From NCBI GenBank assembly GCA_020720565.1, contig DYOK01000001.1:7334-71333 (forward strand): DNA of 64,000 nt. The letters run 5' to 3'. Positions 1 to 63,071 of the stretch are shown in pieces. Position 1 is the first letter of the stretch. Each line of letters begins with the position of its first letter. The notes under the pieces were generated by a model. The model saw only the letters and a list, made by a program, of their open reading frames with translations, made no database searches and had not been told where the DNA came from. This DNA comes from Acetofilamentum sp. (GTDB taxonomy: Bacteria; Bacteroidota; Bacteroidia; Bacteroidales; JAFGXI01). A program made the translations under genes and the position numbers.

Positions 1-1062
1 GGCGGCATTCATACCGAAGAAGAAATTAGTGCTGAGTTTATGTTCCAAGAACTCGAAGTGTCTTATGAGTTAATACCAGAAATGAGTCGAAGTATCAAAC
101 TATGGAGCGACTTTGTAGCCTATCGAAAAATTAGCAAAATAATAAAAGAATACCAACCTGACATTGTTCACACACATGCGTCGAAGGCTGGGCTCATTGG
201 TCGATTGGCTGCTATTCGACATGGTGTGCCAGTTATTATTCATACTTTTCATGGGCATGTTTTTCATTCCTATTTTGGTTGGTTAAAAACCAGAGTTTTT
301 ATTACAATAGAACAAATATTGGCTTTAAAAACCAATGCTATCATCGCAATTAGTCCATTACAATTGCAAGAATTGTCTCAAACTTTTAAAATCGCACCTA
401 CTCGGAAATTTCATTTGATACCGCTTGGTTTCAATTTAGATCCATATATCCAGAGACAGGATGAAAAACGCGAGGCTTTTCGTTCAAAATATCAATTAAA
501 AGAACAAGAAATTGCTATTTGTATTATTGGTCGCTTGGTTCCGATAAAAAATCATGCATTATTTATCGAAGCACTGGCCGAACTCAAAACAACACACCAA
601 CTAACATTTAGGGCGTTCGTGGTGGGCGATGGTTTTTTGAAAGCCGAGCTGCTTGAACAAGCCGAAAAATTAGGATTAAGCACCAGTCAAGACACAAAGC
701 CAGCCGATGTTTGCTTTACCTCGTGGATTACCGATACAGCACCAGTTTATGCGGGCTGCGACATTGTTGCTTTAAGTTCGAAAAACGAAGGGACACCTGT
801 TACCTTAATCGAAGCACAAGCGGCTCTTAAACCCATCGTAAGCACCCCTGCCGGCGGCACAGAAGATATTCTCTATCCGAGTTCGTTCCACAAAATTAGT
901 TTACCAAATCCAAAAGATTTCGCCCAAAATATTCGGGATATAATGGTACTTTTACAAACCGAGAAACCTGCTGAAGCGATTCGAAAGGTTTGTATCGATC
1001 GTTTTGCATATCAAAATTTAGTCAACAAAATGCAGATGTTATATACCAAATTATTGAAATAA
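1..1062 (+). CDS. Glycosyltransferase, GT-B fold / family 4-like (5' end outside window)
   Basis: Frame 1 is open from base 1 (GGIHTEEEISAEF precedes the first Met at 40). C-terminal half is typical of GT4 enzymes (GRLVPIKN, SSKNEGTPVTLIEAQA). Confidence 0.8.
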   Translation, partial: GGIHTEEEISAEFMFQELEVSYELIPEMSRSIKLWSDFVAYRKISKIIKEYQPDIVHTHASKAGLIGRLAAIRHGVPVIIHTFHGHVFHSYFGWLKTRVFITIEQILALKTNAIIAISPLQLQELSQTFKIAPTRKFHLIPLGFNLDPYIQRQDEKREAFRSKYQLKEQEIAICIIGRLVPIKNHALFIEALAELKTTHQLTFRAFVVGDGFLKAELLEQAEKLGLSTSQDTKPADVCFTSWITDTAPVYAGCDIVALSSKNEGTPVTLIEAQAALKPIVSTPAGGTEDILYPSSFHKISLPNPKDFAQNIRDIMVLLQTEKPAEAIRKVCIDRFAYQNLVNKMQMLYTKLLK

Positions 1063-1076
1063 GGGCTTCGACCTTA
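1060..1076 (+). repeat. Isolated repeat head (TAAGGGCTTCGACCTT) fused to the stop codon of the GT4 gene
   Basis: Matches the head of the dispersed repeat but lacks its body. Its TAA is the stop codon at 1060..1062. Confidence 0.6.
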
Positions 1077-1084
1077 ATAAGCAC

Positions 1085-1170
1085 TAAGAATAATAGAATG
1101 TCGTATTTTATTAAGCTAGAGGATTGATAAATTGCAAGTTAGAAAAACAATAAATAGGTCGAAGACCTTA
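1085..1170 (-). repeat. Dispersed ~85-bp repeat, full copy (reverse orientation)
   Basis: The reverse complement reads TAAGGTCTTCGACCTATTTATTGTTTTTCTAACT...CTAGCTTAATAAAATACGACATTCTATTATTC. Confidence 0.8.
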
Positions 1171-1202
1171 AGATACATTAAATAATACTTTATATTTAAG
1201 AC

Positions 1203-2582
1203 ATGTTGAGCCATCGCAATTTTGATTCTACTGATATCTTGTTTAGCCTGGTGTATTTGGTTATCATATTTATTATTGCCAACTTTATCCGAGGTTTTAA
1301 CATTAAGAAACGCCCCGAATATGCATACCTTTTTAAAGCTATGGGTATCAAGATATTTGGTTCGATGGCTTTTGCTTTTGTCTATTTGTTTTACTATGGA
1401 GATGGCGATACGGTTTATTACTTCGAAGGCGCCTCTACCCTTACCAATTACATATACAAAGACCCTTTCCAATACATTCGACTGCTTTTTTCCTCTACCG
1501 AATTCCCTTACGATTTAAACCATGTGCATAGCGAAATTTTATTTTCCAATTCTGGCGAAGAATGGTTTATGGTCAAAATTGTTTCCATTCTCAATATTGT
1601 AGCTTTTGATAGGTACTTTATCAATTCGATCATTATATCGATGGTTTCACTTTGGGGAAGTTGGCGCATGTTTCAGGGTTTTTTAATGTTCGAACCTAAA
1701 TATAAAAATTTGACTTTTTGGGCTGTATTCGGTGTGCCATCAGTCATATTTTGGGGAAGCGGATTACTTAAAGACACCATTACTTTTGCTTTTCTAGGTG
1801 TATTTTTCTATCATAGCATGAAAGTATTTTTTAAATACCAATTTAAAGCTAAATCGATTTTTGCCATCACCTTTTCGATGTTTATCATTTTTAACATCAA
1901 AGCGTATATCATTCTAAGCTTCTTGCCTGTTTTGCTTATTGGTTGGATTGTTTACAATCGAAAATCGATAAAAAGTACATTTATAAGGAACATTATCACT
2001 CCATTTCTCTTGATAAGTGGCATAGGTGCAGCCGTAGTTATTGTGCCAACTATTGCTCAAAGTAGCGACAAATATAAATTCGAGAATTTAGAATCTCGGT
2101 TAAAAGGATTTCACTCATGGCACTCATCTTTAGGCGGATCATCGTACGATCTACATGTAACCGATTACTCGGTACCATCAATCCTAGCAAAAATTCCGGC
2201 CTCATTGAATGTTACGTTTTATCGGCCTTATGTGACCGAAATTCGAAATGCGGTAAGTGCAATAGGAGCATTGGAAAGTCTATTATTTTTAGTGCTATCA
2301 ATAATAATTCTGATTCGACTTAGACTAAAACTTTTAGTAATTATATTCGATAGCCCCATTTTGATTATTGCTTTGTTCTACTGTATTATTTTTGGCTTTG
2401 CTGTTGGATTTACCTCGTATAACTTTGGTGCTTTGGCTCGATACAAAATTCCAACCATGCCTTTTTTTGCCTATTTAGTTTTGTATTTGTTTAATTATTA
2501 TCGCATTCACCGATTCGACAAAGCAGAAGAACGTGAACGTTCAATGGAACGCCCAGCAGAAATAAAGCAAGCAAAAGATTAA
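1203..2582 (+). CDS. Polytopic integral membrane protein, function unknown (possibly glycan-related, follows a GT4 gene)
   Basis: 459-aa ORF with many hydrophobic helices throughout and no catalytic motif I recognise. The overlapping ORFs 1116..1472(-) and 1222..1518(+) look spurious. Confidence 0.6.
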   Translation: MLSHRNFDSTDILFSLVYLVIIFIIANFIRGFNIKKRPEYAYLFKAMGIKIFGSMAFAFVYLFYYGDGDTVYYFEGASTLTNYIYKDPFQYIRLLFSSTEFPYDLNHVHSEILFSNSGEEWFMVKIVSILNIVAFDRYFINSIIISMVSLWGSWRMFQGFLMFEPKYKNLTFWAVFGVPSVIFWGSGLLKDTITFAFLGVFFYHSMKVFFKYQFKAKSIFAITFSMFIIFNIKAYIILSFLPVLLIGWIVYNRKSIKSTFIRNIITPFLLISGIGAAVVIVPTIAQSSDKYKFENLESRLKGFHSWHSSLGGSSYDLHVTDYSVPSILAKIPASLNVTFYRPYVTEIRNAVSAIGALESLLFLVLSIIILIRLRLKLLVIIFDSPILIIALFYCIIFGFAVGFTSYNFGALARYKIPTMPFFAYLVLYLFNYYRIHRFDKAEERERSMERPAEIKQAKD

Positions 2583-2620
2583 AAGTAGAATATAATAAAT
2601 GTTTTTTATAGGCGAACGGC

Positions 2621-3969: not shown

Positions 3970-5028
3970 TTAGCAGTTATCATCATTTGCTTTTTGAATA
4001 TTATTCAGATTCAATTCATTATTCACTAATCGATCAAAATCACTTTCAAATAATCTGTCCTGTATAATTCTGTATTTCTCAAACTCTGTTTCCGCATGCA
4101 CTTTTGCAATTTCTGCAGACACTTTTCCTGCATCTTGTAATATATTTCTATCAGTGGCTTCAATAAATCTATTCAAACGTGTCTCCCAGTCTTCCATTGT
4201 CATCGGAATTCCCCTAAGTGCCATATCCTCAGCAATATCAATGTAGGCAGAAACCAATCGTTGTAATTGTTGCATCTCATTTTCGTTCAAATAGTTTTTT
4301 GCTACACTTACATCAAATTTTTGAATTTTTCCATTTGGTGCATCTTTCCAAATACTTAATCCCATATTCTGCTTTTGGTGGTCGGCTCTATTAATTATTA
4401 CTTCCGCTGCTGTTTGACCGTGTATTGCCCAATGTAACTTATTTTGAACTGTTGCAAAAAAACGTTTAGTTGCTTGAGCTGTAAAATCATAATCAATAGC
4501 TGTGGTATAAATATCGGTTATTTTTTGATAAAATTTGCGTTCGCTTAACCGTATTTCTCTAATACGTTGCAGTTGTTCTTCAAAGTATTTTTTGCCTAAA
4601 ATAGAGCCATCGTTTTTAAGTCGCTCATCGTCCATTGCAAAACCCTTGATCGTAAACTCTTGCACAATTTGAGTTGCCCACTTTCGGAACATTACCGCTC
4701 GCTCACTGTTAACTTTGTAGCCTATTGCAATTATTGCCGATAAATTATAGTGCTTTGTTTTGTAGCTTTTAGCATCATTGGCAGTTATTCGAAAATTTCG
4801 AATAACTGAACTTTCACTTAGCTCACTATCCAAAAATATTTTTTTTAAATGATAATTAATGGTATGAGTTTCTACATTGTATAACTCCCCCATCATTTTT
4901 TGAGTTAACCAAATATTTTCATCTGCATAAATTGCATCTATTCCACCATCACCTGTCGAAGCAATAAAAGTTAAATATTCGGCAGATGAAGATCGAATTA
5001 CTGCTTTATTTTTATTTTTTTCTGCCAT
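3970..5028 (-). CDS. RhuM-family (virulence-associated, Fic/DOC-related) protein
   Basis: The N-terminal block ENIWLTQKMMGELYNV...INYHLKKIF...VIRNFRITA...KHYNLSAIIAIGYKVNSERAVMFRKWATQ...IKGFAMDDERLKN matches the RhuM family pattern. Confidence 0.85.
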   Translation of the reverse strand: MAEKNKNKAVIRSSSAEYLTFIASTGDGGIDAIYADENIWLTQKMMGELYNVETHTINYHLKKIFLDSELSESSVIRNFRITANDAKSYKTKHYNLSAIIAIGYKVNSERAVMFRKWATQIVQEFTIKGFAMDDERLKNDGSILGKKYFEEQLQRIREIRLSERKFYQKITDIYTTAIDYDFTAQATKRFFATVQNKLHWAIHGQTAAEVIINRADHQKQNMGLSIWKDAPNGKIQKFDVSVAKNYLNENEMQQLQRLVSAYIDIAEDMALRGIPMTMEDWETRLNRFIEATDRNILQDAGKVSAEIAKVHAETEFEKYRIIQDRLFESDFDRLVNNELNLNNIQKANDDNC

Positions 5029-6440: not shown

Positions 6441-6520
6441 ATTAAAATAATTTAATATTAACTTGCTCAAAAACCTGATAATCTTTTGGTTACAAACTAA
6501 AAAAAAGGCAGAAGACCTTA
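6441..6520 (-). repeat. Dispersed repeat, diverged copy (reverse)
   Basis: The reverse complement reads TAAGGTCTTCTGCCTTTTTT..GTTTGTAACC...TTATCAGG...ATTAAATTATT. The head TAA is the stop of ORF 6518..6895. Confidence 0.6.
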
Positions 6521-7598: not shown

Positions 7599-7717
7599 AT
7601 TTTTTCTTTTGTCATCTAAAAGGCAAATCTACATTAAGTCTTTGCTTTATCAAACACATTACGTTGAAGTATTAAAGCTTTTTTCAACAAAGCAAAAAAT
7701 AACGATTGCACGAGTTT

Positions 7718-7799
7718 TAAGGCCTTCAATTTATTGGTTGTTTCTGTAACTTTCAAAATGTCAGATTTTTAGCTAAAACAATACAATATTAAAGTATAC
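7718..7799 (+). repeat. Dispersed repeat, copy with deleted hairpin arm
   Basis: TAAGGCCTTCAATTTATTGGTTGTTTCTGTAACT...CAGATTTTTAGCTAAAACAATACAATATTAAAG. Confidence 0.6.
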
Positions 7800-7871
7800 A
7801 TACTACCTAAATATTTTTCTACACTTGAATATTAATCACTATATTTATTCCATCTTTTGATTTTTGAAAAT

Positions 7872-8228
7872 ATGAATATCGAAAATTTCAGACAATATTG
7901 TATCGATTTGAAAGGCACTACTGAAAGTTTTCCGTTCGATCAAACGACTTTAGTCTTTAAAGTAATGGATAAAATGTATGCATTGCTCGATTTAGAAGAT
8001 AAAAAAGCCAATTTAAAAGTTTTGCCAGACAACATTTTCGATTTAATCGATAGAAATGCCTTTGTTTTCCCTGGATATCACATGAATAAAAAGCATTGGA
8101 TTACTGTTGATATCGAACAAGCACCAAATGTTGAATTTATTAATCAACTGATTTACAATTCATATAAACTGGTCGTTAGCAGATTGCCAAAGAAAAAACA
8201 AATTGAATTAGCACAGCCATTCGATTAA
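7872..8228 (+). CDS. MmcQ/YjbR family DNA-binding protein
   Basis: MNIENFRQYCIDLKGTTESFPFD...LVFKV..KMYALL is typical of YjbR. I prefer the ATG at 7872 over the TTG at 7857. Confidence 0.8.
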   Translation: MNIENFRQYCIDLKGTTESFPFDQTTLVFKVMDKMYALLDLEDKKANLKVLPDNIFDLIDRNAFVFPGYHMNKKHWITVDIEQAPNVEFINQLIYNSYKLVVSRLPKKKQIELAQPFD

Positions 8229-13840: not shown

Positions 13841-15031
13841 TTATTCTCCCATTATCTCGGTAATCTTGGCTAACATCTGATCGATGCTCGCATCTGGCTT
13901 TAATTCTTTTGCTTTTGTTAAATTGGGTTTGGCCAAATTAAAATATTGTGTCATTAAATTCATGTCAGCTTGGTCGCCCCTTTTATACTGATAAACAGCT
14001 CTGTTATAATAAAGTACACCAAGATTATAGTAAATTGAATGGAGTGTGTTTTTGTCGCTTGGTTTTTGGTCGAGTGCCAAATTATAATAATTAGTTGCTT
14101 TGGAATAATATAGCTCGGCAGTACCTTGGTAGCCATTTTTTTCGAATTGTTTACCAAATTTGGTGTAGTTTCTGGCTAAAATAAATAAAATCTTAAGATT
14201 CGTTTTATTATGCTCAACCACTTTTTCCATCTGCTGAATCATATCATCGGTTTTTTCGGCATCTCGATAAATGGCAATAGCCTCGATTACAATAGCTTCG
14301 TTTTGAGGATAAAGCACCAAAGCTCTCTCAATCACTTTAATGGCTTCGGTATAATTTTTTTGTTTAGACAATATTTTAGCACTGTATAAAAAAGCTAAAT
14401 CTTTACTTTTTGTGAGTGCTGTGGGAATATCGGAATTAAAATCCATTATTTTTTGATAATAACTTAACGCCATTTCTGTCTTTCCAGTACATTCTGCCGA
14501 ATAACCCGAAAAGAAATACACATCGTTTGGATTCGAACCACTGTATTGAATAATTTGAGTAACATATTTGTCCTCGTTTTTTAAAGCTAATAAAACTTCG
14601 AAGTAACCATTAAAATATTGTTGAGCCAATTCAAATTGCTTTATAACACTGTCTTTAACAGCTGCGTTGTACGATTTTATGCCTTTGTTGTAAAAAACAG
14701 GTCCCAAATCTAACAATACATTTATTTGGTCGGAGTACATTTTTCGATCGGCGTCGATTCGAATCGATTCCTTAATGTAGGTTAAAGCTTTTTCTTCGGG
14801 ATACTGTTCCAAGTGCCCGTAGACTTCCGATTTTGCCATTTTCGTGTACACATACGAAGCTAAATACCACGTTCGAGGATCGTTTTGTTTTTGTGGATCT
14901 TTAATATTTGAATCTACTTGACGCTTTGCATCTTCGAGTTTGCCTTTCAGCAATTCAGTTTCGTTTTGTGCCAATAAGGTGTTTCCGAAATAGCCTAAAG
15001 CGATTGCAAAAAATAAAAATGTGGTTTTCAT
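13841..15031 (-). CDS. Secreted TPR-repeat protein
   Basis: Signal peptide (MKTTFLFFAIALGYFGNTLLAQ) followed by repeated TPR-like A/Y/L patterns. Confidence 0.7.
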   Translation of the reverse strand: MKTTFLFFAIALGYFGNTLLAQNETELLKGKLEDAKRQVDSNIKDPQKQNDPRTWYLASYVYTKMAKSEVYGHLEQYPEEKALTYIKESIRIDADRKMYSDQINVLLDLGPVFYNKGIKSYNAAVKDSVIKQFELAQQYFNGYFEVLLALKNEDKYVTQIIQYSGSNPNDVYFFSGYSAECTGKTEMALSYYQKIMDFNSDIPTALTKSKDLAFLYSAKILSKQKNYTEAIKVIERALVLYPQNEAIVIEAIAIYRDAEKTDDMIQQMEKVVEHNKTNLKILFILARNYTKFGKQFEKNGYQGTAELYYSKATNYYNLALDQKPSDKNTLHSIYYNLGVLYYNRAVYQYKRGDQADMNLMTQYFNLAKPNLTKAKELKPDASIDQMLAKITEIMGE

Positions 15032-15050
15032 ATCTGGTCTTTTTTGGTAT

Positions 15051-15117
15051 TAAGGTCATCGACCTATTATTTATTTTTCAACTACTAGATTTTTATAACA
15101 TTACGATAAATAAATGC
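15051..15117 (+). repeat. Dispersed repeat, shorter copy
   Basis: TAAGGTCATCGACCTATTATTTATTTTTCAACTACTAGATTTTTATAACATTACGATAAATAAA. It lies 20 nt upstream of a minus-strand gene start. Confidence 0.65.
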
Positions 15118-15296
15118 GACCTTGTAATTTTTGAATTACTAACTTCATATAAAATTTCAATTTACTTTTCGTTTATGCAAACATAACGAAAAATACTGTA
15201 TTTCAAATCAATGTCAAAGTGTTACGCTACAAATATTTTAATGCTATTTGAAAAAAATTCAAATTTATCTATATTTTGATAAAACAGACTAATAAA

Positions 15297-16456: not shown

Positions 16457-16493
16457 GATTTTTTATACGGTGTTTAGTTCAATTAATTATGTA

Positions 16494-16578
16494 CTTTAAA
16501 TAATAAAGTCGTTTCTTTATTTAGCTAAACGTCTGGTAAAATGCCAATTATAACACAAACAAATTGGTCGAAACCTTA
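16494..16578 (-). repeat. Dispersed repeat, diverged copy (reverse)
   Basis: The reverse complement reads TAAGGTTTCGACCAATTTGTTTG...TTTAGCTAAATAAAGAAACGACTTTATTATTT. The head TAA is the stop of the TPR gene at 16576. Confidence 0.6.
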
Positions 16579-20814: not shown

Positions 20815-20885
20815 TAAGGACTTCGACTTATTTATTAGTTTTGTAACTGACGTTAAAACAATATCTCAGATAAGTAATAATTGAC
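20815..20885 (+). repeat. Dispersed repeat, diverged copy in the gyrA/clpC divergent spacer
   Basis: TAAGGACTTCGACTTATTTATTAGTTTTGTAACTGACG... Confidence 0.6.
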
Positions 20886-20958
20886 AATATATTATTCTGA
20901 GTGCTTATAATAATCTAAAAATAGTATTGCGAAAAAATCATAGAAATTAAAAACAATT

Positions 20959-25098: not shown

Positions 25099-26328
25099 AT
25101 GAACACCTTGCCAGAACGGAACCTAACCCTCCAATCTAAGTTGTTAGAAGCACTCTATAAGCTTAATAATAGTTTCTATAAGAACCTGTCAATTAGAATT
25201 ATAACCGATCAAATCAAAAACTTTCTTGAACAAGAATTAAAGTTATCTCGTTTTGTTTTAGTTTATTTTGAAGATAACGAATGGAATCCTATTTTTTTTG
25301 AAGGTGCAAATTTTTCAAAACTTAAAACTGTAAACTTCGAAAAAGAATTAAAACCTTTTGAATGCGATAGTCCAATTCGATTTGCTCCCGAACATGAATT
25401 AAGCGCATTTTCGTTTGTTATTCCAATTCTACATAAAAAAAAACCGATCGCATACCTTTTAATTAGTGACAATTATGAACATCTAAGCATTGAGCGTCCT
25501 TGCATTCGTCATACAAGATTTATTACACATTATGCACAAGCATTTATTATGGGTATGGAAAATAAGCGGCTTTTTAAAGAAAACTCTAAAAAAGAGCGTT
25601 TTAAAACCGAACTTAATTTAGCCTCAAAAATGCAATTGATGTTAGTTAAAAGTTCTGATTTATTACCAAATAACGATACTATAGAATTTTTTACCTATTA
25701 CAAGTCATTATTCGAAATTGGGGGTGACTTTTATGACGCTTGCCAAATCGATGAGCAATCAACTGCTTTTTGTATTGCAGATGTTTCGGGAAAAGGGGTT
25801 TCTGCAGCGTTGCTAATGTCTAATTTACAAGCCAATTTAAATGCCCTTTTCCAAAACGATTTGCCTTTGCCTATTATTATCGAAAAACTAAATTCAATTA
25901 TTAACAATATCACCCAAAACGATAGATTTGTAACACTTTTTCTAGGCTGTTATCGTTCCGATACCAAAACGCTTAGGTATATAAATGCTGGACATAATCC
26001 ACCTGTTATATTTCTTTCGAATCAAATTAGCACTCAATATCTCGAAAAAGGATGTGCTGGTATTGGGATGCTCGATGATTTGGGGGAAATTGAAGTCGGC
26101 GAATTAAGTATTCCTTCTGGTTCTAAATTAATTTGTTTTACCGATGGCGTTAGCGAATCGCATACAAAATTTGGCTTAGAGTTTGGTCATACCAATTTTG
26201 TACCTTTTTTAAACCAAAGCGAAACGATACAAACTACGGTATCCAATATTCTTGCCTTTTTTAAAGAAATGGTTCCCTCGGAAAACATTATCGACGACAC
26301 CACTATTTTTGGGGTGGGATTTAAATAA
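25099..26328 (+). CDS. PP2C-family (SpoIIE-type) serine phosphatase with N-terminal GAF-like sensor region
   Basis: SpoIIE motifs GGDFYD, ADVSGKGVSAALLMS, NAGHNPP and TDGVSE. I prefer the ATG at 25099 (MNTLPERN) over 25039. Confidence 0.8.
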   Translation: MNTLPERNLTLQSKLLEALYKLNNSFYKNLSIRIITDQIKNFLEQELKLSRFVLVYFEDNEWNPIFFEGANFSKLKTVNFEKELKPFECDSPIRFAPEHELSAFSFVIPILHKKKPIAYLLISDNYEHLSIERPCIRHTRFITHYAQAFIMGMENKRLFKENSKKERFKTELNLASKMQLMLVKSSDLLPNNDTIEFFTYYKSLFEIGGDFYDACQIDEQSTAFCIADVSGKGVSAALLMSNLQANLNALFQNDLPLPIIIEKLNSIINNITQNDRFVTLFLGCYRSDTKTLRYINAGHNPPVIFLSNQISTQYLEKGCAGIGMLDDLGEIEVGELSIPSGSKLICFTDGVSESHTKFGLEFGHTNFVPFLNQSETIQTTVSNILAFFKEMVPSENIIDDTTIFGVGFK

Positions 26329-26402
26329 GATCTTCGACCTGTATTTTTGTAGTACCTTATATATCTGTACTATAGATTAAATAAATACGACATAAATTAT
26401 CC
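26326..26402 (+). repeat. Dispersed repeat copy
   Basis: TAAGATCTTCGACCTGTATTTTTGTAGTACC...TAAATAAATACGACATAAATTATCC. The head TAA is the stop of the SpoIIE-type phosphatase gene. Confidence 0.7.
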
Positions 26403-26416
26403 ATAAAACTTAAAAA

Positions 26417-27507: not shown

Positions 27508-27560
27508 TGAGGTCTTAGACCTATTTATTGATTTTCTAACTAAATTTTTGTTAATAATTT
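27508..27560 (+). repeat. Dispersed repeat, truncated copy between arcC and argF
   Basis: TGAGGTCTTAGACCTATTTATTGATTTTCTAACTAAATTTTTG. It is antisense to the surrounding minus-strand genes. Confidence 0.6.
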
Positions 27561-28501: not shown

Positions 28502-28519
28502 ATTTGTTTTTATTTTAAC

Positions 28520-28556
28520 AAGGTCTTTGACCCATATGTTTTAAATATTTTATCCA
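28520..28556 (+). repeat. Possible repeat-head fragment
   Basis: CAAGGTCTTTGACCCATATGTTTTAAATATT. Only the head region is recognisable. Confidence 0.35.
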
Positions 28557-29615: not shown

Positions 29616-29629
29616 GTTGTTAAATTAAG

Positions 29630-29718
29630 TACATAGAATAATCTAGTGTCAGACTTTATTAAGCTTAGAGCTTGTTTTAATGTACGTAACAAAAACAACA
29701 AATAGGTCGAAGACCTTA
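29630..29718 (-). repeat. Dispersed repeat, full copy (reverse)
   Basis: The reverse complement reads TAAGGTCTTCGACCTATTTGTTGTTTTTGTTACG...AGCTTAATAAAGTCTGACACTAGATTATTC. Confidence 0.75.
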
Positions 29719-30628: not shown

Positions 30629-31300
30629 ATGAAATCAATTACGTTACTTCTCTCAATTGCTTTGGTAGCAATCAATTTAAACACTTTTGCAGGCGGAAAA
30701 AAACCTGCTGGCGGATTCTCGGGCACAGTAAAATATAAAATTACTTACGAAGGTCGCGAAATATCGGCACAAGAACAAGCCCAAATGCCCTCAGAAATTG
30801 TTGAATACCATCTTAACAATATGACTCGAAAAGACATGGTAACTCCAATGTATTCGGTAATTACAATTTTAAACAACGAAACCCAAGAAACCATTCTTTT
30901 AATCGATGCAATGGGTAAAAAATTCTACATTAAAAAATCGGGCGAAGAAGTTAAAGCAGCAATGGCTAAAAACGACTCTGCAAATGCTAAACCCGAAGTA
31001 AAAATGTTAGACGGAACAAAAACGATTGCTGGTTATGTTTGTAAAAAAGCTGAATTAGTTTCGGGCGAAGAAACCACTACTGTTTTTTATACCGATGCAA
31101 TTGCAGCGGTAAATCAAGAATACAAAGAAATACCAGGCTACCCAATGTATTATAGCTCTAAAATTCCACAAATGGAAGAATTAGTAATGGTCGGCGAAGC
31201 CACAAGTGTTGACACCAAAAAGCCAAGCAAAAAGTTATTTGAGATTCCTAGCGATTACGAAGAAATGACTCCTGAAATGGCGAAACAAATGGGCATGTAA
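30629..31300 (+). CDS. Secreted protein, paralog of 29872..30555
   Basis: Signal peptide. DGTKTIAGYVCKKAE and FEIPSDY blocks are shared with the upstream gene. The stop TAA lies in a repeat head. Confidence 0.6.
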   Translation: MKSITLLLSIALVAINLNTFAGGKKPAGGFSGTVKYKITYEGREISAQEQAQMPSEIVEYHLNNMTRKDMVTPMYSVITILNNETQETILLIDAMGKKFYIKKSGEEVKAAMAKNDSANAKPEVKMLDGTKTIAGYVCKKAELVSGEETTTVFYTDAIAAVNQEYKEIPGYPMYYSSKIPQMEELVMVGEATSVDTKKPSKKLFEIPSDYEEMTPEMAKQMGM

Positions 31301-31385
31301 GGCCTGCGACCTATTTCTTGTTTTTGTAACTAGTAATTTATCAGAATTCTAGCTTTTTAAAATACGATATTAAATTATGCATAAT
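31298..31385 (+). repeat. Dispersed repeat, full copy
   Basis: TAAGGCCTGCGACCTATTTCTTGTTTTTGTAACTAGTAATTTATCAGAATTCTAGCTTTTTAAAATACGATATTAAATTATGC. The head TAA is the stop of gene 30629..31300. Confidence 0.8.
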
Positions 31386-31413
31386 ACTTTAATAGTCCAA
31401 AAAAAGAAAATTA

Positions 31414-34038: not shown

Positions 34039-34500
34039 ATGATACAACGCATTCAAACCTTATATCTTTTAATATCGGTAGTGGTTATTAACTTGCTTTT
34101 TGTTTTGCCCATTAACGAATTAACTAATTCTGTGCATATGCTTCGCTTTACAATTTTTGGCATTTCCGAAATTGTTCACGATAAGACTGAGTTGATAATA
34201 GAAACTATACCCTTGCTGGTATTAACTAGCTTTTCTGCCCTATCGCTATTCTTTTCGATTTTTCTTTTTAAAAACAGAAGATTACAAACTAGACTTGTGG
34301 TGTATTCGATAGTTGTACTTATAGGTTTACAAACGCTTTTTATATTTTATTTGTATAAAATCACTACCCTCAATCAGACCAACTTTAGTTTCTCGCCAGG
34401 ATTGTTTTTACCTATCGTAGCCGCCTTTCTTGCCTTTCTTGCATTTCGTGCTATTCGAAAAGATGATGAATTGGTTAAGTCGACAGATAGAATAAGATAA
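34039..34500 (+). CDS. DUF4293 family membrane protein
   Basis: MIQRIQTLYLLISVV start and four TM helices are typical of DUF4293. The stop TAA lies in a degenerate repeat head. Confidence 0.7.
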   Translation: MIQRIQTLYLLISVVVINLLFVLPINELTNSVHMLRFTIFGISEIVHDKTELIIETIPLLVLTSFSALSLFFSIFLFKNRRLQTRLVVYSIVVLIGLQTLFIFYLYKITTLNQTNFSFSPGLFLPIVAAFLAFLAFRAIRKDDELVKSTDRIR

Positions 34501-34576
34501 GTGCTTCGATCTGTTTTTATTGCATAACTGCATGTGTATCATATTATTACGAAAATAATTCGTCATTAAATTATTC
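34498..34576 (+). repeat. Dispersed repeat, diverged copy
   Basis: TAAGTGCTTCGATCTGTTTTTATTGCATAACTGC...TTCGTCATTAAATTATTC. The head TAA is the stop of the DUF4293 gene. Confidence 0.6.
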
Positions 34577-34730
34577 AAAGTATTAATTTTAATTTTTGGC
34601 TTGGTTTCTGTTAAAGATTGTTAAGACTATTCACATTGGGAAATAGTCAGTTTTTTCGTATCAAATTTTAATTAGATTTGCGAAACAAATCAAGTTTTTT
34701 TTGACAATCTTTTAAAACCAGTTTAAAATT

Positions 34731-37449: not shown

Positions 37450-38589
37450 ATGCTCATGAATTTTTTCGAAAAACTTTGTTTTCTATATTTTATGATAATT
37501 GACCATTTAGAAAATTCTCATTCGTTTCCTAACCTTAGCGTAAATAAAGGTAAAGATGTAAGTTCTACCAATCCACAATCGGTTAATGATTTTCGAGCCA
37601 AGCGTCAAAAACAAAACGATGCCATATCTTATTTTAATGCCATAAGACTAGGCCATATTCCTAGCCTAAGCAAAGCCATTACACTGATTGAAAGCACCCG
37701 TCCTGAGCATCAAAAACTGGCTTCCGAAATTGTTAACCTCTGTCTACCCTACTCCGGAAATGCCATGCGTATTGGAATAACTGGTGTACCCGGTGTAGGA
37801 AAAAGTACATTTATCGAAACTTTTGGTTTAAGTTTGGTTCAGCAGGGGAAAAAGATTGCGATTCTGGCAATAGACCCAAGCAGCGAAAAGTCGAAAGGTA
37901 GTATTTTAGGCGATAAAACCAGAATGGAGGAGCTTGTAAAATCTCCATTTGCATTTATTAGACCGTCGCCTTCGTCTGGAACTTTGGGTGGTGTAGCTCG
38001 AAAAACAAGAGAAAGTATTATTCTTTGCGAAGCAGCAGGTTTTAACATGGTATTAATCGAAACCGTTGGAGTTGGACAATCAGAAATCGCTGTCCATTCG
38101 ATGACAGACTTTTTTCTCCTGTTGATGCTGGCTGGTGCTGGTGACGAACTTCAAGGTATCAAAAGAGGAATTATGGAAATGGCCGATGGTATTGCCATTA
38201 CTAAAGCTGATGGTGACAATTTATTGAAAGCTCAAGCTGCTGTATCCGAATTTTCAAACGCATTACATCTTTTTCCGCCAACTAGTTCTGGTTGGATTCC
38301 AAAAGTCTTAGCCTGTTCTTCAACAGAAAATACTGGTATACAAGAGCTTGGCAGTAATATTGAACTGTTTTTTACAAGGCAAACCGAAAATGGACATCTC
38401 CAAATAAAGCGTATCTCACAATCAAAATATTGGATGCACGAAAACATTAAAGCTTTGATTTTAGATGATCTTTACCGTGATCCGAAAATATCGGAACAAC
38501 TAATCACAATCGAAGAGCAACTAATTAATCAAAAAATTGATCCTTTTAAAGCCTCTGAAATAATCTTTGAAATGTATCGTTCTAAATAA
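37450..38589 (+). CDS. meaB: Methylmalonyl-CoA mutase-associated GTPase MeaB (ArgK/LAO-AO type G3E GTPase)
   Basis: LSKAITLIES, P-loop GVPGVGKSTFIE, ETVGVGQSE and ITKADGD. The start may be 37492. The stop TAA lies in a repeat head. Confidence 0.88.
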   Translation: MLMNFFEKLCFLYFMIIDHLENSHSFPNLSVNKGKDVSSTNPQSVNDFRAKRQKQNDAISYFNAIRLGHIPSLSKAITLIESTRPEHQKLASEIVNLCLPYSGNAMRIGITGVPGVGKSTFIETFGLSLVQQGKKIAILAIDPSSEKSKGSILGDKTRMEELVKSPFAFIRPSPSSGTLGGVARKTRESIILCEAAGFNMVLIETVGVGQSEIAVHSMTDFFLLLMLAGAGDELQGIKRGIMEMADGIAITKADGDNLLKAQAAVSEFSNALHLFPPTSSGWIPKVLACSSTENTGIQELGSNIELFFTRQTENGHLQIKRISQSKYWMHENIKALILDDLYRDPKISEQLITIEEQLINQKIDPFKASEIIFEMYRSK

Positions 38590-38672
38590 GGTCTTCGACC
38601 TATTTCTGGTTTATGTAACTAGCTATTTATCAGATTTATAGCTTTATTAAATGCGTCAATAAATTATTATTC
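38587..38672 (+). repeat. Dispersed repeat, full copy
   Basis: TAAGGTCTTCGACCTATTTCTGGTTTATGTAACTAGCTATTTATCAGATTTATAGCTTTATTAAATGCGTCAATAAATTATTATTC. The head TAA is the meaB stop. Confidence 0.8.
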
Positions 38673-38691
38673 AAAGTACAATAAGTTCTTA

Positions 38692-45730: not shown

Positions 45731-48433
45731 TTAGCTCTGAATAAAAGAAATATTTAATATCCTGTCGATTGAACCATATTCGTCTAAAATTGGTGAATAG
45801 GTTTCGTTTAAAAGGATACTATCTCCATTATTCAAATGAACTGTGGCAAGTCTCGAAACTACTTCTTTGTCTTTTAACTTAGACCATATGGCTCCTAATT
45901 CGGCTTCGTAATCTTCTGAATGATAGAAATCACGATGATTTAAGCCAATAATTGTTGACCTATCTGCAATCCCAAAAGATTCGAGAACTTTATCGTTTAC
46001 ATTTAACACTTCACCTTCGAGATTAAAATATACCACGAGTGCTGCGGCATCAATTGCTGAAGTTAAACTCACCAACTCAGCTTCTTTTTTGCCCATTTCT
46101 TCTTGGGTAGCAAGCATTTCTTCCATGTTTTGACGCATCTCTTCCTCTTGTGCTTGCATCTCTTCGTGTTGTTGCGAGATCTGTTGCTGACTCATCACTT
46201 CTTCAGTAATATCAAACGAAATGTTTAATACTTTTGATACCCTTTGATGGGCATCATAAACGGGTGTATAAGTTTCGTTTAACCAAATGACATCTCCTTT
46301 TGGGGTTCTAATTTGTCCTTTTCTGGCAATAATTTGCCCATTTTCAAGTTCAGACCAGATTCTATCGTTTTGAACCTCATCATCTACATTGATATAAAAA
46401 TCTCTATGATTGGCTCCAATGATTTCGTCCTTAGATTTTAACCCAAACAAATCGATAATTTTTTTATTGACGGTAAGAATATTTCCATACAAGTCGAATT
46501 CAGCGACCAATGACGAGACATTTAATGCATTTACAACACCTGTAAGTTCAGATTCTTTTCGAGCCATTTCCTCCTGTGTAGCTTGCATTTCTTCTAAATT
46601 CTGACGCATTTCTTCTTCTTGAGCAGACAATTCTTCTGCTTGTTGCCTTGATTGTTCGAGTAGTTCTTTGGTTTGCTGATTGATTTGTTGACGACCAATA
46701 GCTTGAGCAATATTTTGGGCAATTTTTTCACAAAACTCTAATTCGAATGGTTCGAAGGTTCTAAATGAGGCTAATTCGAGAACACCGTAAAGTTCATTTT
46801 CAGATATTAATGGCAACATAAGTAGAGCACTGGGGGGCGCTTCCCCCAATCCAGATGTGATGCTGATGTAATTTTGAGGCAAATCTGTTAAATAGGTCAT
46901 TTTACCTTCTAAGGCCGTGTTTCCAAGCAATCCATCTCCAACTTTAATTTCTTTGTTAAGAAATTTCCTTCTATCATATGCGTATGCAGATTTTAAGAAT
47001 AAGGTTTCTTTATCTTTAGCTAGTAAAAAGAAGGCTCCTTGGTTTACGTCTAAATAAGAAATCAAATTGGACAATATATTATAAGTATATGACTCGATGT
47101 CCATTTCGTTATCTTGCAAAATTGCAACAAACTTGGCATTACCTTCCACCATCCATTTTCTTTGTTCTTCTAATTTGGCTTGATGTTGCATTTCTTCAGC
47201 TACATTTTTAAGTTTATCCCGAACTTGCAATAAAGTATTACCCAGCAAATCGTCCTCACTTAAAGCTTCAAAAGTTGAGTTATAATTTTCGTTTCCGATT
47301 TCGATAGTAAAATGTGCCATTTTCTTTAATCCATCGCTAACAGTAATTAAAGTATTTTGCATCTCACCCACTTCGTCATTAGATTGAATCGATTTAGAAT
47401 CTGAAATTTTTCCGTTCGATAAGTCGTTTAAATTTCTAGTTACTCTTTTAATAGGAATAATTATAAACATTCTAATTACAATAAACAAGGTTACAATAGC
47501 TAGAAGGAAAATCATAATACCAATAAAAAACAAGCTATATGAGGACGCATTCATATTGGTAATAAAATCTTTTTTACTGTTTTGATAAACCAAAACACCT
47601 AAAACTTCGTTGTCAAAGCTAGTAATTGGTATTTGCAAATAGTTATTAATTTTGTCAAATTCGATGCGTTTGTTTTTATTTTCGGATTGATATATTTTGT
47701 TAAAGTTTTCTCGATTAAAATTGGAAGTTGAAAATACAATTAAATCTTCTTGAATAAAGTTTGAAGCGACTTGTGCCCCTTCTACTTTAGACATCATATT
47801 TACATATTCCTTACTTATTATCAGTGCGTATGATTCGTAATCGCTAGGTTTTAATTCTTTAATTAATTCTATAAATGGCGAGTTAACTTCTAATGCACCA
47901 ATAAATTGCCCTCTAACAATAACAGGACTAATCCCTCTTATATCAATTCCATACTTACCAACTTCGAGACCCTGAATTGATTTTTTATCTTCAAATATTT
48001 TTTGAATGGCCTTTCTTTTTTGTAGTACATTATCACCTTTTTCCGACGATCTGGATCTAAAAAGCACAATCCCAGGATGGGCATAACAATTAATTGGAGG
48101 TACTTCAATTTTTGACTGATTAGCCCCAAACTTAATTCGGTCGATTTCTGAATTAATTAGACTCCAAGATGTATCAATCTTCTGGGTTTGGTTATAAACA
48201 GTAAAAGCAGCCCTAATTGCATAAGAATTCGCCAAAGTATTTGAATAGTGAGCTAAAAAGCTCTCTTTACTCGCTAATATTTCTGTTACAGATTTTTCTT
48301 TGCTCGATAAAACTTTTTTCATTTCAGCCTCAAAAGTTTCGACAAGTATTCTTCTGTTTAAGAGATACATACTGCCGCCAAGCAAAACCAAAGAGAGTAT
48401 AATTGGTAAAAAAATCTTTGTTTGTAATTTCAT
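45731..48433 (-). CDS. Membrane sensor protein: periplasmic Cache-like domain, TM, HAMP, GAF, then two coiled-coil+PAS modules; no recognisable output domain
   Basis: N-terminal TM, ~270-aa extracytoplasmic region, second TM, HAMP-like segment (SNDEVGEMQ) and GAF-like block. Duplicated (Q/E-rich EEMRQNxEEMxATQEEM + PAS) modules run to the C-terminus. Confidence 0.8.
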   Translation of the reverse strand: MKLQTKIFLPIILSLVLLGGSMYLLNRRILVETFEAEMKKVLSSKEKSVTEILASKESFLAHYSNTLANSYAIRAAFTVYNQTQKIDTSWSLINSEIDRIKFGANQSKIEVPPINCYAHPGIVLFRSRSSEKGDNVLQKRKAIQKIFEDKKSIQGLEVGKYGIDIRGISPVIVRGQFIGALEVNSPFIELIKELKPSDYESYALIISKEYVNMMSKVEGAQVASNFIQEDLIVFSTSNFNRENFNKIYQSENKNKRIEFDKINNYLQIPITSFDNEVLGVLVYQNSKKDFITNMNASSYSLFFIGIMIFLLAIVTLFIVIRMFIIIPIKRVTRNLNDLSNGKISDSKSIQSNDEVGEMQNTLITVSDGLKKMAHFTIEIGNENYNSTFEALSEDDLLGNTLLQVRDKLKNVAEEMQHQAKLEEQRKWMVEGNAKFVAILQDNEMDIESYTYNILSNLISYLDVNQGAFFLLAKDKETLFLKSAYAYDRRKFLNKEIKVGDGLLGNTALEGKMTYLTDLPQNYISITSGLGEAPPSALLMLPLISENELYGVLELASFRTFEPFELEFCEKIAQNIAQAIGRQQINQQTKELLEQSRQQAEELSAQEEEMRQNLEEMQATQEEMARKESELTGVVNALNVSSLVAEFDLYGNILTVNKKIIDLFGLKSKDEIIGANHRDFYINVDDEVQNDRIWSELENGQIIARKGQIRTPKGDVIWLNETYTPVYDAHQRVSKVLNISFDITEEVMSQQQISQQHEEMQAQEEEMRQNMEEMLATQEEMGKKEAELVSLTSAIDAAALVVYFNLEGEVLNVNDKVLESFGIADRSTIIGLNHRDFYHSEDYEAELGAIWSKLKDKEVVSRLATVHLNNGDSILLNETYSPILDEYGSIDRILNISFIQS

Positions 48434-59074: not shown

Positions 59075-60850
59075 ATGAAATCATTTTTTAAATTTACATT
59101 AGCCTCAATGTTAGGCTTTATTCTAGCTGGTATACTGCTAATTTTTGTAGTTGCAGGCATAATAGGTGCTATGATAGCGGCTGCCGGCGATGACACTGTT
59201 ACTCAAAAACCTAAAACAGTGTTAACAATCGATTTGACGCAAGGTGTTACAGAACGCACATCGAAAAATCCATTAGAAAATTTTAATTTTCAGGCGTTTA
59301 AATCTGAAAATAAAATCGGCTTAAACGATATTTTAAGCCAAATTGAAAGAGCTAAAACAGATGAAAATATTAAAGGAATTTACATCAACTCTAGCTCAAT
59401 CGAAGCAGGCATTTCTACTGTTGAGGAAATTAGAAATGCATTAATCGACTTTAAAACCAGCGGTAAGTTTATCTTATCATATAACGAGGTGTATTCTCAA
59501 GGCGCATATTATTTGGCTTCTGTATCGAATAAAATTTATCTTAATCCAGAAGGTTTAGTCGATTTTAAAGGGCTTTCGGCTCAAATTATGTTTTATAAAG
59601 ACGCACTCGATAAATTAGGCGTTGAGCCCATTATTATTAGAGGTAAAAACAATAAATTTAAAAGTGCGGTTGAGCCTTATATGTATAATCATATCAGTGA
59701 AGCCAACAAATTGCAAACATTAACTTATATGGGCTCTATTTGGAATCATATTTTAAAGGGAATTTCTGATACTAGAAAAATTTCTGTTGATCAACTCAAT
59801 GTTATGGCTGATAGCATGTATGTGAATAGTGCTAAAGCAGCCAAAGAATACAAACTGGTCGACGATCTAAAGTATTACGACGAAGTATTAGCGGAGCTTA
59901 AAAAACTTTCTGACACTCCCGAAAAAGATGATATCAATTTTATGTCAATTTCTGAATATTCAAAAGTACCTCAATTAGCAACAGGCAAAGGAGTTTCTAA
60001 AAATAAAATTGCAGTAATCTATGCCACTGGTCAAATTGATATGGGCAAAGGAAGTGCAGAAGAGATCGGTTCTGAGGGCTTGTCGTCGGCCATTCGCAAA
60101 GCCAGACTTGATACTACAGTAAAAGCAATTGTTTTGCGTGTTAATTCACCTGGTGGTAGTGCTTTAGCCTCTGAAGTGATTTGGAGAGAGGTTGTTTTAG
60201 CCAAAAAAGCAAAGAAAGTTGTGGTTTCTATGGGAGATGTAGCTGCTTCTGGTGGATATTATATCGCTGCGCCCGCCGATAAAATCTATGCCAATCCGGT
60301 CACCATTACAGGATCAATTGGCGTATTTGGAATTTTGTGGAATGGTCAAAACTTAATGAATAAAATTGGTATTAATACCGATGCTGTAAATACCAATGCA
60401 CATTCTGATATAGGGAATATGTTTCGTCCGATGAGCGATGGCGAATATGCTGTTATTCAAAAAAGTGTCGAAGATATTTATGATGTCTTTTTAGGACACG
60501 TTGCCGAAGGCCGAAATAAAACCAAAGCCGAAATTGATTCTATTGGACAAGGCCGTGTTTGGAGTGGTTATAACGCCAAAGAAATTGGTCTTATTGACGA
60601 GTTCGGTGGATTAAACGATGCCATTAAAGGAGCTAAAGAATTAGCAAAATTAGATGATTATAGAGTGGTTGAATATCCTGAACAAAAAGAGCCTTTCGAG
60701 GAAATTATGGAGAGTTTTGGTGCAAAAGCACAGCTTTATTTTACCGAAAGTCAACTTGGTGAAACATTCAAATATTATCAACAAATTCAGAACTTAACTA
60801 AACTAAGAGGCGTTCAAGCTAGAATTCCTTTTGTTATCGAAATTAAATAA
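59075..60850 (+). CDS. sppA: Signal peptide peptidase SppA, 67K type
   Basis: N-terminal TM and two ClpP/crotonase-like halves. Catalytic region VVVSMGDVAASGGYYIA. The stop TAA lies in a repeat head. Confidence 0.92.
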   Translation: MKSFFKFTLASMLGFILAGILLIFVVAGIIGAMIAAAGDDTVTQKPKTVLTIDLTQGVTERTSKNPLENFNFQAFKSENKIGLNDILSQIERAKTDENIKGIYINSSSIEAGISTVEEIRNALIDFKTSGKFILSYNEVYSQGAYYLASVSNKIYLNPEGLVDFKGLSAQIMFYKDALDKLGVEPIIIRGKNNKFKSAVEPYMYNHISEANKLQTLTYMGSIWNHILKGISDTRKISVDQLNVMADSMYVNSAKAAKEYKLVDDLKYYDEVLAELKKLSDTPEKDDINFMSISEYSKVPQLATGKGVSKNKIAVIYATGQIDMGKGSAEEIGSEGLSSAIRKARLDTTVKAIVLRVNSPGGSALASEVIWREVVLAKKAKKVVVSMGDVAASGGYYIAAPADKIYANPVTITGSIGVFGILWNGQNLMNKIGINTDAVNTNAHSDIGNMFRPMSDGEYAVIQKSVEDIYDVFLGHVAEGRNKTKAEIDSIGQGRVWSGYNAKEIGLIDEFGGLNDAIKGAKELAKLDDYRVVEYPEQKEPFEEIMESFGAKAQLYFTESQLGETFKYYQQIQNLTKLRGVQARIPFVIEIK

Positions 60851-60905
60851 GTCTTAGACCTATTTTTAGAATTAACTAGCAGATTTTTAATCTTATAAAT
60901 TAGTA
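60848..60905 (+). repeat. Dispersed repeat, shorter copy
   Basis: TAAGTCTTAGACCTATTTTTAGAATTAACTAGCAGATTTTTAATCTTATAAATTAG. The head TAA is the sppA stop. Confidence 0.65.
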
Positions 60906-60936
60906 CACAAACAATATTGTTTTCATAAAACATAAT

Positions 60937-62018: not shown

Positions 62019-62780
62019 ATGTTTGGAAATTCTTCAAATCCTATTTTACAAGAAAAAACGTTCAACAAAGAGCGCGTTTATGGTAACAGTGCAACCATGA
62101 CCGTGAATGGAACCATCGAAAAAACAGGCGTTTTACTATTAATCTTAATTGTGGCTGCTTCGTATACTTGGCAAATGGCTTTCAATTCGGGTGATATCGA
62201 AAATGCTTCGGCTAGCATGTTCCCTTGGATGATTGGCGGTGCAATTGGTGGATTGGTCGTTGCCATTGCGATGATGTTTATGCATAAATATGCGGCATAT
62301 CTTGCTCCTATTTATGCCGTTTTAGAAGGATTATTTATTGGTGCTATTTCTGCATTTTTTGAATTTATGTATCCAGGTGTTGTTATGAATGCTGTTTTAG
62401 GCACATTTGGAACTTTCTTAGTGATGCTTTTTGCCTATCGAACAGGCTTGATAAAAGTTACCGAAAAATTACGTGCAGTTATTATTGGAGCTACCATTGC
62501 AGTAGGAATTACCTATTTGCTTACATGGGTACTCGGTATGTTTGGTGTAAATATGGGCTTTATGCACGGCAATGGGCTTTTAAGTATTGGCATTTCGTTG
62601 GCTGTCATTGTAATTGCTGCCTTTAATTTACTTCTCGATTTCGATATGATCGAAAGAGGTGCTCAAAGTGGTGCTCCTAAATATATGGAATGGATTGGTG
62701 CATTTGGTTTGTTGGTTACTTTGGTATGGCTCTATATCGAATTTTTAAAGTTATTATCGAAACTACAAAGCAGAGATTAA
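62019..62780 (+). CDS. Bax inhibitor-1/YccA family membrane protein
   Basis: MFGNSSNPIL start followed by seven TM helices. I prefer the ATG at 62019 to the upstream non-ATG start at 61977. Confidence 0.85.
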   Translation: MFGNSSNPILQEKTFNKERVYGNSATMTVNGTIEKTGVLLLILIVAASYTWQMAFNSGDIENASASMFPWMIGGAIGGLVVAIAMMFMHKYAAYLAPIYAVLEGLFIGAISAFFEFMYPGVVMNAVLGTFGTFLVMLFAYRTGLIKVTEKLRAVIIGATIAVGITYLLTWVLGMFGVNMGFMHGNGLLSIGISLAVIVIAAFNLLLDFDMIERGAQSGAPKYMEWIGAFGLLVTLVWLYIEFLKLLSKLQSRD

Positions 62781-62801
62781 AACATCTTGTATCAGTTTTT
62801 A

Positions 62802-62828
62802 AAGAGGCTTTTCAAGCCTCTTTTTTTT
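62802..62828 (+). terminator. Hairpin plus T-run after the Bax inhibitor-1 family gene
   Basis: AAGAGGCTT-ttc-AAGCCTCTT is a 9-bp stem followed by TTTTTT. Confidence 0.7.
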
Positions 62829-62841
62829 GTTCAAAATCATT

Positions 62842-62905
62842 TAAGGTCTTCGACCTATTTATTATTTATCACTACTTTCCGAAACTTTAAAACGGAAATT
62901 ACTTG
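62842..62905 (+). repeat. Dispersed repeat, copy with divergent body
   Basis: TAAGGTCTTCGACCTATTTATTATTTATCACTAC... The head is perfect and the body diverges. Confidence 0.65.
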
Positions 62906-62990
62906 CAACTTTTCATGTTTTACAGGCGATTGCTCTGAAAAAAGTGCATTCAGTAATTTTTGCTAAAAGGTACGTATTTGTTTACTCCAC

Positions 62991-63071
62991 TAAGGTCTCC
63001 GACCTATTTATTGGTTTGTAACTATCTATTTATTAGTACTCTAGCTTAAAAAATACGACATTAAATTATTC
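62991..63071 (+). repeat. Dispersed repeat, full copy
   Basis: TAAGGTCTCCGACCTATTTATTGGTTTGTAACTATCTATTTATTAGTACTCTAGCTTAAAAAATACGACATTAAATTATTC. Confidence 0.8.

Follow-up and report, generated by a model that had tools for sequence, protein, structure and literature searches.

Miniature inverted-repeat transposable elements of bacteria, or MITEs, are in general shorter than 200 bp and A+T-rich, with TA termini, a target-site duplication (TSD) and terminal inverted repeats (PMC2229807). RUP of Streptococcus pneumoniae, a MITE of IS630-Spn1, is about 107 bp long, non-coding and intergenic; it inserts at TA, reaches about 100 copies, carries stop codons in all frames and also enters other repeats and insertion sequences (ISs) (PMC2229807). 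The Correia elements, or NEMIS, of Neisseria are likewise MITEs, 100-155 bp long; they have TA termini and a duplication, lie densely in intergenic DNA, are co-transcribed with their neighbors and can alter gene ends (PMC2229807). Here we describe a short intergenic repeat in a 64,000-nt stretch of an Acetofilamentum sp. assembly (contig DYOK01000001.1, positions 7,334 to 71,333; "the window" throughout). The 16-nt left end of this repeat, or head, TAAGGTCTTCGACCTA, matches the window 13 times where 0.26 matches are expected, so the recurring element noticed in a first-pass annotation of this DNA is real. Our tally is 17 copies or fragments (11 long, 6 partial), slightly above the "at least 16" given there. 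They make up about 2% of the window (the sum of the listed copy lengths), which has a G+C content of 34% and no tRNA genes. We conclude that the copies most likely belong to a miniature non-coding DNA transposon, a MITE, which inserts at TA and has been spread by a transposase encoded elsewhere.

Other carriers of the repeat were found in an exact-match scan with a 19-nt form of the head. The scan covered one genome per species, and the taxonomic range it gives is a lower bound. The head occurred in at least 103 stretches; among the matches listed, nearly all belonged to "Bacteroidales bacterium GMC9.metabat2.98"; GMC3 and GMC7 supplied a few, and a contig of 30% G+C one (L026; loci are cited by such labels below). 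The GMC9, GMC3 and GMC7 metagenome-assembled genomes (MAGs) are JAOZVK01, JAOZMN01 and JAOZTL01, respectively. When up to four substitutions were allowed, the window and the carrier loci (together about 0.66 Mb) contained 348 head matches. Searches of a plasmid collection (blastn, 11-base words) and of viral contigs returned chance matches only. L026 holds a copy of the window's own subfamily at 7895-7987 (DYPF01000032.1). Its contig is titled as a Chloroherpeton thalassium MAG, a label or binning that is doubtful, and the window subfamily also occurs in a sulfidic-cave sample.

The unit is about 93 nt long in the window genome, a form seen in five window copies and in L026, and 105 nt long in the related GMC MAGs; one window copy (38587-38691) also has 105 nt. 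Of 60 full copies in the GMC9 loci, 49 have a length of exactly 105 nt; every copy runs TAAGG...CTTA, and the flanks diverge from the base immediately outside the unit. Intact copies start with TAAGG and finish with (A/G)T(A/G)CTTA. The consensus proposed in the first-pass annotation was therefore correct but stopped about 10 nt too early. The left end of the unit (TAAGGTCTTCGACCTATTTA...) is a palindrome that forms a 5-bp hairpin, TA-AGGTC-TTC-GACCT-ATTTA, and the right end (...AGTACTTA) closes with ...AGTACT-TA, in which the left end is repeated inverted and in degenerate form. TA stands at both termini in 69 of 69 full-length GMC9 copies and in the intact window copies. The unit is A+T-rich, begins with TAA and has no open reading frame (ORF). 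When 68 distinct copies were aligned, about 35 nt at the left end and about 30 nt at the right end were conserved, and the middle defined at least five subfamilies. The hairpin, or the left end of about 36 nt, is found at both ends in the window unit 1060-1171 and in a part of the GMC7 and GMC9 copies. A Bacteroidetes-type promoter (TTTG or TAnnTTTG) was considered for the conserved TTTTGTAAC box and rejected. Judged by eye, most copies are without the A at position 2, and the location of the box differs between the two families; such a promoter is speculation.

Like RUP, the window/GMC element is short (93-105 nt), has TA at both ends and is found nested in other repeats. Unlike RUP, whose inverted repeats match a known IS, it has weak inverted repeats and a hairpin at the left end only, and its parent IS was not found; no sequence similarity between the two was shown, and the host belongs to another phylum. 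The Correia elements have good inverted repeats of about 26 bp that fold the whole transcript, which is cut by RNase III, whereas single units of the present family fold like shuffled sequence, and the sequences are unrelated. A search of Rfam and of the full-text literature (hairpin sequence, Bacteroidales MITEs) yielded nothing relevant. The family therefore seems undescribed, although the kind of element is ordinary and well known.

The strongest evidence for mobility comes from sites that are filled in one place and empty in another. For each full copy, we joined the left flank, TA and the right flank into a presumed empty site and searched this sequence against the same loci. The filled site at L018:5899-6003, accactat-TAAGG...CTTA-tcatcgtgg, corresponds to an empty site at L048:312-373, accactat-TA-tcatcgtgg, with 96.8% identity over 62 nt. 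The copy at L031:1275-1379 is nested in a copy of another subfamily, as seen by comparison with at least 15 intact copies at 96-100% identity. L023:4847-4951 sits inside a different repeat family, and its rebuilt empty site was matched elsewhere; L071:2658-2762 is filled where L015 is empty. One pair is orthologous: in GMC3 locus L011:3748 the element has entered the TA of a TAA stop codon, and GMC9 locus L105 is empty (...AAATTA-TA-AATAATTG...), the two MAGs sharing four syntenic genes. Altogether, at least four paralogous pairs and this orthologous pair show the same difference, namely the element and a single TA. Insertion targets TA in A/T-rich surroundings, and the flanks have no longer consensus. 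Since the element with one TA is exactly what an empty site lacks compared with a filled one, the unit is mobile DNA that inserts at TA and has TA on both sides. The TA would be duplicated upon insertion, a reading we adopt from the established pattern of TA-specific transposons and bacterial MITEs (PMC2229807).

The copies differ in age between genomes. Pairwise identity among the window copies is 48-85% (median 63%), and several have broken or partly deleted hairpins, with many truncated. By contrast, members of GMC9 subfamily A are 80-97% identical to one another (median 91%), which suggests that the family has undergone recent bursts of activity in GMC9, nested insertions included. Given their mutual identity, the window copies are old, and this population is probably inactive and no longer mobile; we infer its present-day immobility in the window genome. 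For presence or absence within the species, four other assemblies were compared; they are 99.6% identical to the window and free of indels.

We then compared the window with its relatives. At 99.5-99.7% identity, the window DNA recurs in two MAGs, GCA_020718325.1 and GCA_974003235.1, and in metagenomes of Trout Bog lake, and a third MAG, GCA_022736635.1, has an identical MeaB protein and the same gene order. Outside the species, the nearest MeaB in the protein database is 65% identical, and the best named homologues, at 55-61% identity, are from Bacteroidales, Prolixibacteraceae and Mangrovibacterium. The gene content includes DUF4295 beside L28/L33, with GldB/GldH-type neighbors in relatives. 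These data place the window in an isolated, uncultured, Bacteroidales-like freshwater lineage. Precise empty sites cannot be shown for the window subfamily because there is no close sister genome. Gene order over window positions 31.5-48 kb is the same in L189 and L191, the closest syntenic relatives, and the syntenic loci L189-L194 contain no copies of the repeat. In a wider set of 80 loci from metagenomic relatives (702 kb; OTCase-like protein 79-89% identical), three weak head matches were found.

Two spacers show what the element may have done. The meaB and OMP-decarboxylase genes are convergent; in the closest relatives their ends overlap, by 14 or 4 nt, and the element is absent, whereas in the window exactly one 105-nt copy lies between them. 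There, the stop codon of meaB (37450-38589) is the first TAA of the element (38587-38589), and MeaB lacks about six C-terminal residues relative to its closest homologues; the OMP-decarboxylase gene has kept its own stop codon (38692-38694), which abuts the last base of the element. Relatives have 24-40 nt between the amino-acid-kinase and OTCase-like genes; in the window this spacer is roughly twice as long and contains the truncated copy at 27508. These data are consistent with past insertion, and the family is, on this comparison, lineage-specific.

We propose that a transposase encoded elsewhere would most plausibly recognize the terminal 20-35 nt of the unit and integrate it at TA in AT-rich DNA, duplicating the TA, as IS630/Tc1-mariner-type enzymes do. 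We infer an enzyme of this type, acting in trans, from the TA-specific insertion and the imperfect inverted repeats, a scheme already put forward for RUP and IS630-Spn1. Since TA-A are the first bases of the unit, a copy that lands on the TA of a stop codon, or just within a dispensable 3' end, would leave TAA as the stop. Old copies would persist as intergenic filler that is co-transcribed with neighboring genes. The first-pass annotation had offered a non-autonomous MITE as one possibility, and this proposal gains from the precise filled and empty sites, the sharp ends, the fixed length, the subfamilies of differing age, the absence from the closest syntenic relatives and the lack of a transposase nearby.

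Several observations weigh against a MITE of this kind. No transposase was found in the window among the Pfam labels of all called genes, or by a Pfam scan of the unlabeled ones, and the earlier statement that the window has no transposase, integrase or RAYT gene holds. ORFs flanked by element ends in the GMC carrier loci (about 0.6 Mb) likewise yielded no transposase. This search for a partner took in multi-copy ORFs in the GMC loci and head-to-tail and head-to-head pairs 0.3-4 kb apart; the ORFs enclosed by these pairs encode proteins such as MoxR, butyrate kinase, RmlA and response regulators. The inverted repeats are weak: in the window family, 14 of 21 positions match (AGGTCTTCGACCTATTTATTG against AGTACTTAGAATAATTTAATG, TA left out), and the GMC9 form is poorer, with 9 of 19. 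The two ends are structurally unlike, with a hairpin at the left end only. Moreover, mobility is seen in the related MAGs and not in the window's own subfamily, and sequence does not distinguish a duplication of TA from insertion between T and A or from a TA carried by the element. The position of the copies relative to stop codons, considered next, is a further difficulty.

The TAA of the head is the stop codon of a gene in seven of the 17 window copies (1060, 16578(-), 26326, 31298, 34498, 38587 and 60848), where random hits at TA in the rebuilt window spacers would give 2.5. The copies had been described as exclusively intergenic, which holds except for these first three bases. Among the 175 exact heads, window included, 22 terminate an open frame 90 codons or longer, compared to 2 and 2 in the other two frames. 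In the carrier loci, 18 copies lie at stop codons where 11.9 are expected at random in either orientation, which is no great excess, but all 18 stand head-first, compared to an expected 5.9. No tail end was found at a stop codon among 69 full GMC9 copies. Both ends begin TA-AG and so keep a TAA in either orientation; translation therefore does not explain the head-first bias, and a symmetric cut-and-paste model does not predict it. The bias could possibly be caused by a target preference that is asymmetric, with A-rich sequence towards the head, by selection against something at the tail end, or by a hairpin that is tolerated just after a stop codon. A broader form of the observation, that the head hugs gene ends and the tail does not, was rejected, as the counts for full-length copies (27:16, p = 0.13) are not significant. 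The head at 6520(-) was likewise discarded as a stop-codon case, for it closes merely a spurious ORF that overlaps surE.

These counts raise the possibility that the element is not a symmetric DDE-type MITE, but an asymmetric, hairpin-ended element that is integrated or retained directionally, its hairpin end supplying TAA at the ends of coding sequences. We regard this as unlikely. If it were true, either a transposition mechanism that has gone unrecognized would read the asymmetry of the target, or the hairpin end would have been co-opted as a gene-end signal.

A hairpin at one end also recalls elements mobilized by HUH tyrosine transposases (RAYT/TnpA), which act on single-stranded DNA hairpins. 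The copies would then be derived from REP/BIME or from IS200/IS605 (PATE-like), and would have spread beside a short target, TA, without duplicating it. The most conserved part of the unit is indeed a short perfect hairpin at one end, the ends are asymmetric, the hairpin end is positionally biased, and solo hairpins occur at 1060, 28519 and 62842 and many more times in the GMC9 loci; in sequence, moreover, duplication of TA is inseparable from insertion beside or within it. As in REP/BIME, a short conserved hairpin is present in high copy number, outside genes, in both orientations and at times in inverted pairs (1060/1170). As in PATEs and other IS200/IS605 derivatives, the hairpin lies near one end and the ends are asymmetric. 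However, a REP consists of nothing more than a 20-40 nt palindrome, which has a conserved 5' tetranucleotide and lacks TA flanks, whereas the present unit has about 100 nt, TA on both sides, a single terminal hairpin and no conserved tetranucleotide of the GTAG/GTGG type. REP/BIME have a RAYT, and no RAYT or other Y1 transposase is present in the window or the loci examined, so that the label "REP-like" given earlier is not sustained. PATEs and IS200/IS605 elements have hairpins at both ends, a one-sided target of 4-5 nt and strand-biased insertion, none of which is seen here; most copies are without a second subterminal hairpin. TA is always on both flanks and empty sites have one TA, the classic TSD pattern. 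Finally, insertion into single-stranded DNA of the lagging strand would give an orientation bias, but orientation relative to local GC skew was 85:96 (p = 0.46). Together, these results make an HUH-mobilized origin quite improbable.

The same hairpin could act in RNA. The first-pass annotation had suggested a family of structured 3' untranslated region (UTR) RNAs, and the copies could in principle be functional structured RNAs, weak intrinsic terminators or stabilizers at gene ends that are kept by selection. On this reading, the hairpin right behind the stop codon, together with the U-rich stretch after it, would act on the upstream mRNA. Besides the seven of 17 heads that begin at a stop codon, this idea draws on the fact that the head meets a minimal terminator pattern (five pairs, three of them G-C, and a T-rich tail) and is far better conserved than the body. 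Yet the element is oriented equally with respect to flanking transcription: copies between co-directional genes in the carrier loci gave 16:16 and 19:16. At 26326 and 31298, the copy comes after a stop codon and is itself followed by a strong canonical terminator; these two copies are thus transcribed 3' UTR and not the terminators.

Structure prediction pointed in the same direction. RNAalifold on 68 GMC9 copies, on either strand, returned the 5-bp head hairpin only, which is invariant through the way the set was selected, and for 12 window-type copies no structure was predicted. An internal 4-bp helix (ACTAG/CTAG to CTGA/TCAG) seemed by eye to show compensation, but this helix together with the head hairpin did not rise above shuffled or slid controls, and 142 of the 500 shuffles reached the covariation score of the two-helix structure. 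In a set of 143 distinct head variants, a pair is broken by 95 single changes and kept as a wobble by 27; of the double changes, 6 are compensatory and 11 are not. This is the pattern that decay from a master sequence would leave. Fold z-scores of single units ranged from -1.7 to +0.9, no better than shuffles, and the sole standout was unit 1060-1171 (z = -3.5), which has a hairpin at both ends. The whole window gave no Rfam match at the gathering score, and two copies searched against Rfam 15 with E up to 10 gave chance-level matches only (E above 0.7). The family is also absent from relatives that carry the same genes. With equal orientations and no covariation, fold stability or Rfam match, the structured-RNA reading is unsupported and very unlikely.

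It is equally improbable that the copies are ordinary solo-end remnants of a full-length IS rather than a dedicated miniature element. Numerous copies are indeed truncated or reduced to the head, but full units are short, of fixed length and defined at both ends (105 nt in 49 of 60; about 93 nt in the window), the short units themselves are seen at filled and empty sites, and no long form occurs between matching ends in the loci examined.

Chance likeness among AT-rich spacers, to which the G+C content of the window and the AT-rich bodies of the element might lend some color, is refuted by the excess of head matches, by the recovery of non-seed copies with E-values down to 1e-8 and by the same head occurring hundreds of times in other MAGs. 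The 13 window matches were counted with up to three mismatches; dinucleotide-preserving shuffles averaged 0.26 with a maximum of 2, and 13 was reached in 0 of 100. A profile (nhmmer) built from seven long window copies then recovered copies outside the seed at 7717-7811 (E 1e-8), 16580-16487 (E 3e-8), 62839-62869 (E 5e-5), 27508-27543 (E 1e-4), 34495-34584 (E 7e-4) and 15050-15120 (E 2e-3). The copies fall 13 on the plus strand and 4 on the minus strand, numbers too small to weigh in judging a strand bias.

Copies and fragments of the repeat in the window. E-values are from the profile search; coordinates are window positions.
Feature	Coordinates	Strand	Evidence	Position and remarks
Solo head hairpin TA-AGGGCTTCGACCT-TA	1060..1076	+	head search	TAA = stop of glycosyltransferase gene ending 1062; forms, with the neighboring copy 1078..1170, a 111-nt unit with a hairpin at each end
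Full copy, 93 nt	1078..1170	-	nhmmer E 1e-24; seed member	head 1155-1170; tail TAAG 1078-1081; head 32 nt upstream of start codon at 1203
Degenerate partial copy (head + ~35 nt)	6470..6520	-	head search; E 0.012	lpxB-surE spacer
Old full-length copy, 92 nt	7718..7809	+	nhmmer E 1e-8; non-seed	hairpin 3' arm partly deleted
Degenerate copy	15051..15142	+	head search; E 2e-3	head 20 nt from start codon (15031) of opposite-strand gene
Old full-length copy, 91 nt	16488..16578	-	nhmmer E 3e-8; non-seed	head TAA (16578-16576) = stop codon of TPR gene 16576-17844(-)
Full copy, 93 nt	20815..20907	+	head search; E 8e-20	divergent gyrA-clpB spacer
Copy, 87 nt, 5-nt deletion	26326..26412	+	head search, profile	head TAA = stop of SpoIIE-domain gene ending 26328; upstream of canonical terminator 26412-26448
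Truncated copy (head + ~25 nt)	27508..27548	+	head search; E 1e-4	amino-acid-kinase/OTCase-like spacer; head 34 nt from start codon at 27474
Degenerate solo head	28519..28534	+	head search, 3 mismatches; weak call by itself	18 nt from start codon at 28501
Full copy, 93 nt	29626..29718	-	head search; E 4e-23	tail 11 nt from stop at 29615
Full copy	31298..31391	+	head search; E 8e-24	head TAA = stop of gene 30629-31300; upstream of bidirectional terminator 31413-31438
Old copy	34498..34585	+	E 7e-4	head TAA = stop of DUF4293 gene 34039-34500
105-nt copy	38587..38691	+	head search, profile	fills whole meaB/OMP-decarboxylase gap
Partial copy	60848..60889	+	DNA repeat search	head minus one G; TAA = stop codon of peptidase S49 gene 59075-60850
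Head + ~18 nt	62842..62875	+	head search; E 5e-5	unrelated sequence beyond
Full copy, 91 nt	62991..63081	+	head search; E 3e-22

A MITE with defined ends gives a bounded repeat family for the annotation of uncultured Bacteroidales MAGs. Its density in GMC9 suffices to break assemblies: the contigs are short, and many of them end in copies. Insertions of such a MITE reshape gene ends: they supply stop codons, and in the window MeaB is shortened and two convergent genes that once overlapped are separated. The young GMC9 subfamilies, with 91% identity and nested insertions, are a place to look for the responsible transposase.

GMC9 contains other repeats as well. Further families were seen in L012, L029, L030 and L038, in L034, L045, L048 and L083, and in L084 and L085, one of them being GGCTACCCGTCAGAAGTTGGAC.... 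Heptamer arrays of AATTACG/AATTATG stand beside TTGGTTTACACCT in at least 14 copies, one of which is split by the MITE, and arrays of CAATGATT/CAATGGTA begin directly after solo heads.

Some features of the window are separate from the repeat family. Between convergent genes, downstream of copy 31298, a perfect palindrome with an 11-bp stem (AAAAGGTACTAAATTTAGTACCTTTT, 31413-31438) has a terminator score on both strands. Genes 29797-30555 and 30629-31300 are adjacent paralogues with PNGase_F-II_N-type domains and share a DNA repeat (30251/31008). Within gene 45731-48433(-), which encodes a 900-aa dCache/GAF/PAS sensor, positions 45787-46646 contain direct repeats of 99 nt (75%) and 43 nt (72%), each pair 471 nt apart, which look like an internal domain duplication. 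The counterpart of the TPR gene 13841-15031(-) is called with 226 aa in two Trout Bog assemblies (L003/L004, 15959-16639), against 396 aa in L001/L002 (15449-16639), the short call being either a strain difference or an assembly frameshift. Finally, a RhuM-family gene at 3970-5028(-) (PF13310, E 3e-106) stands alone among housekeeping genes (lpxB, spoIID-like); genes of this family are usually located on islands or prophages.

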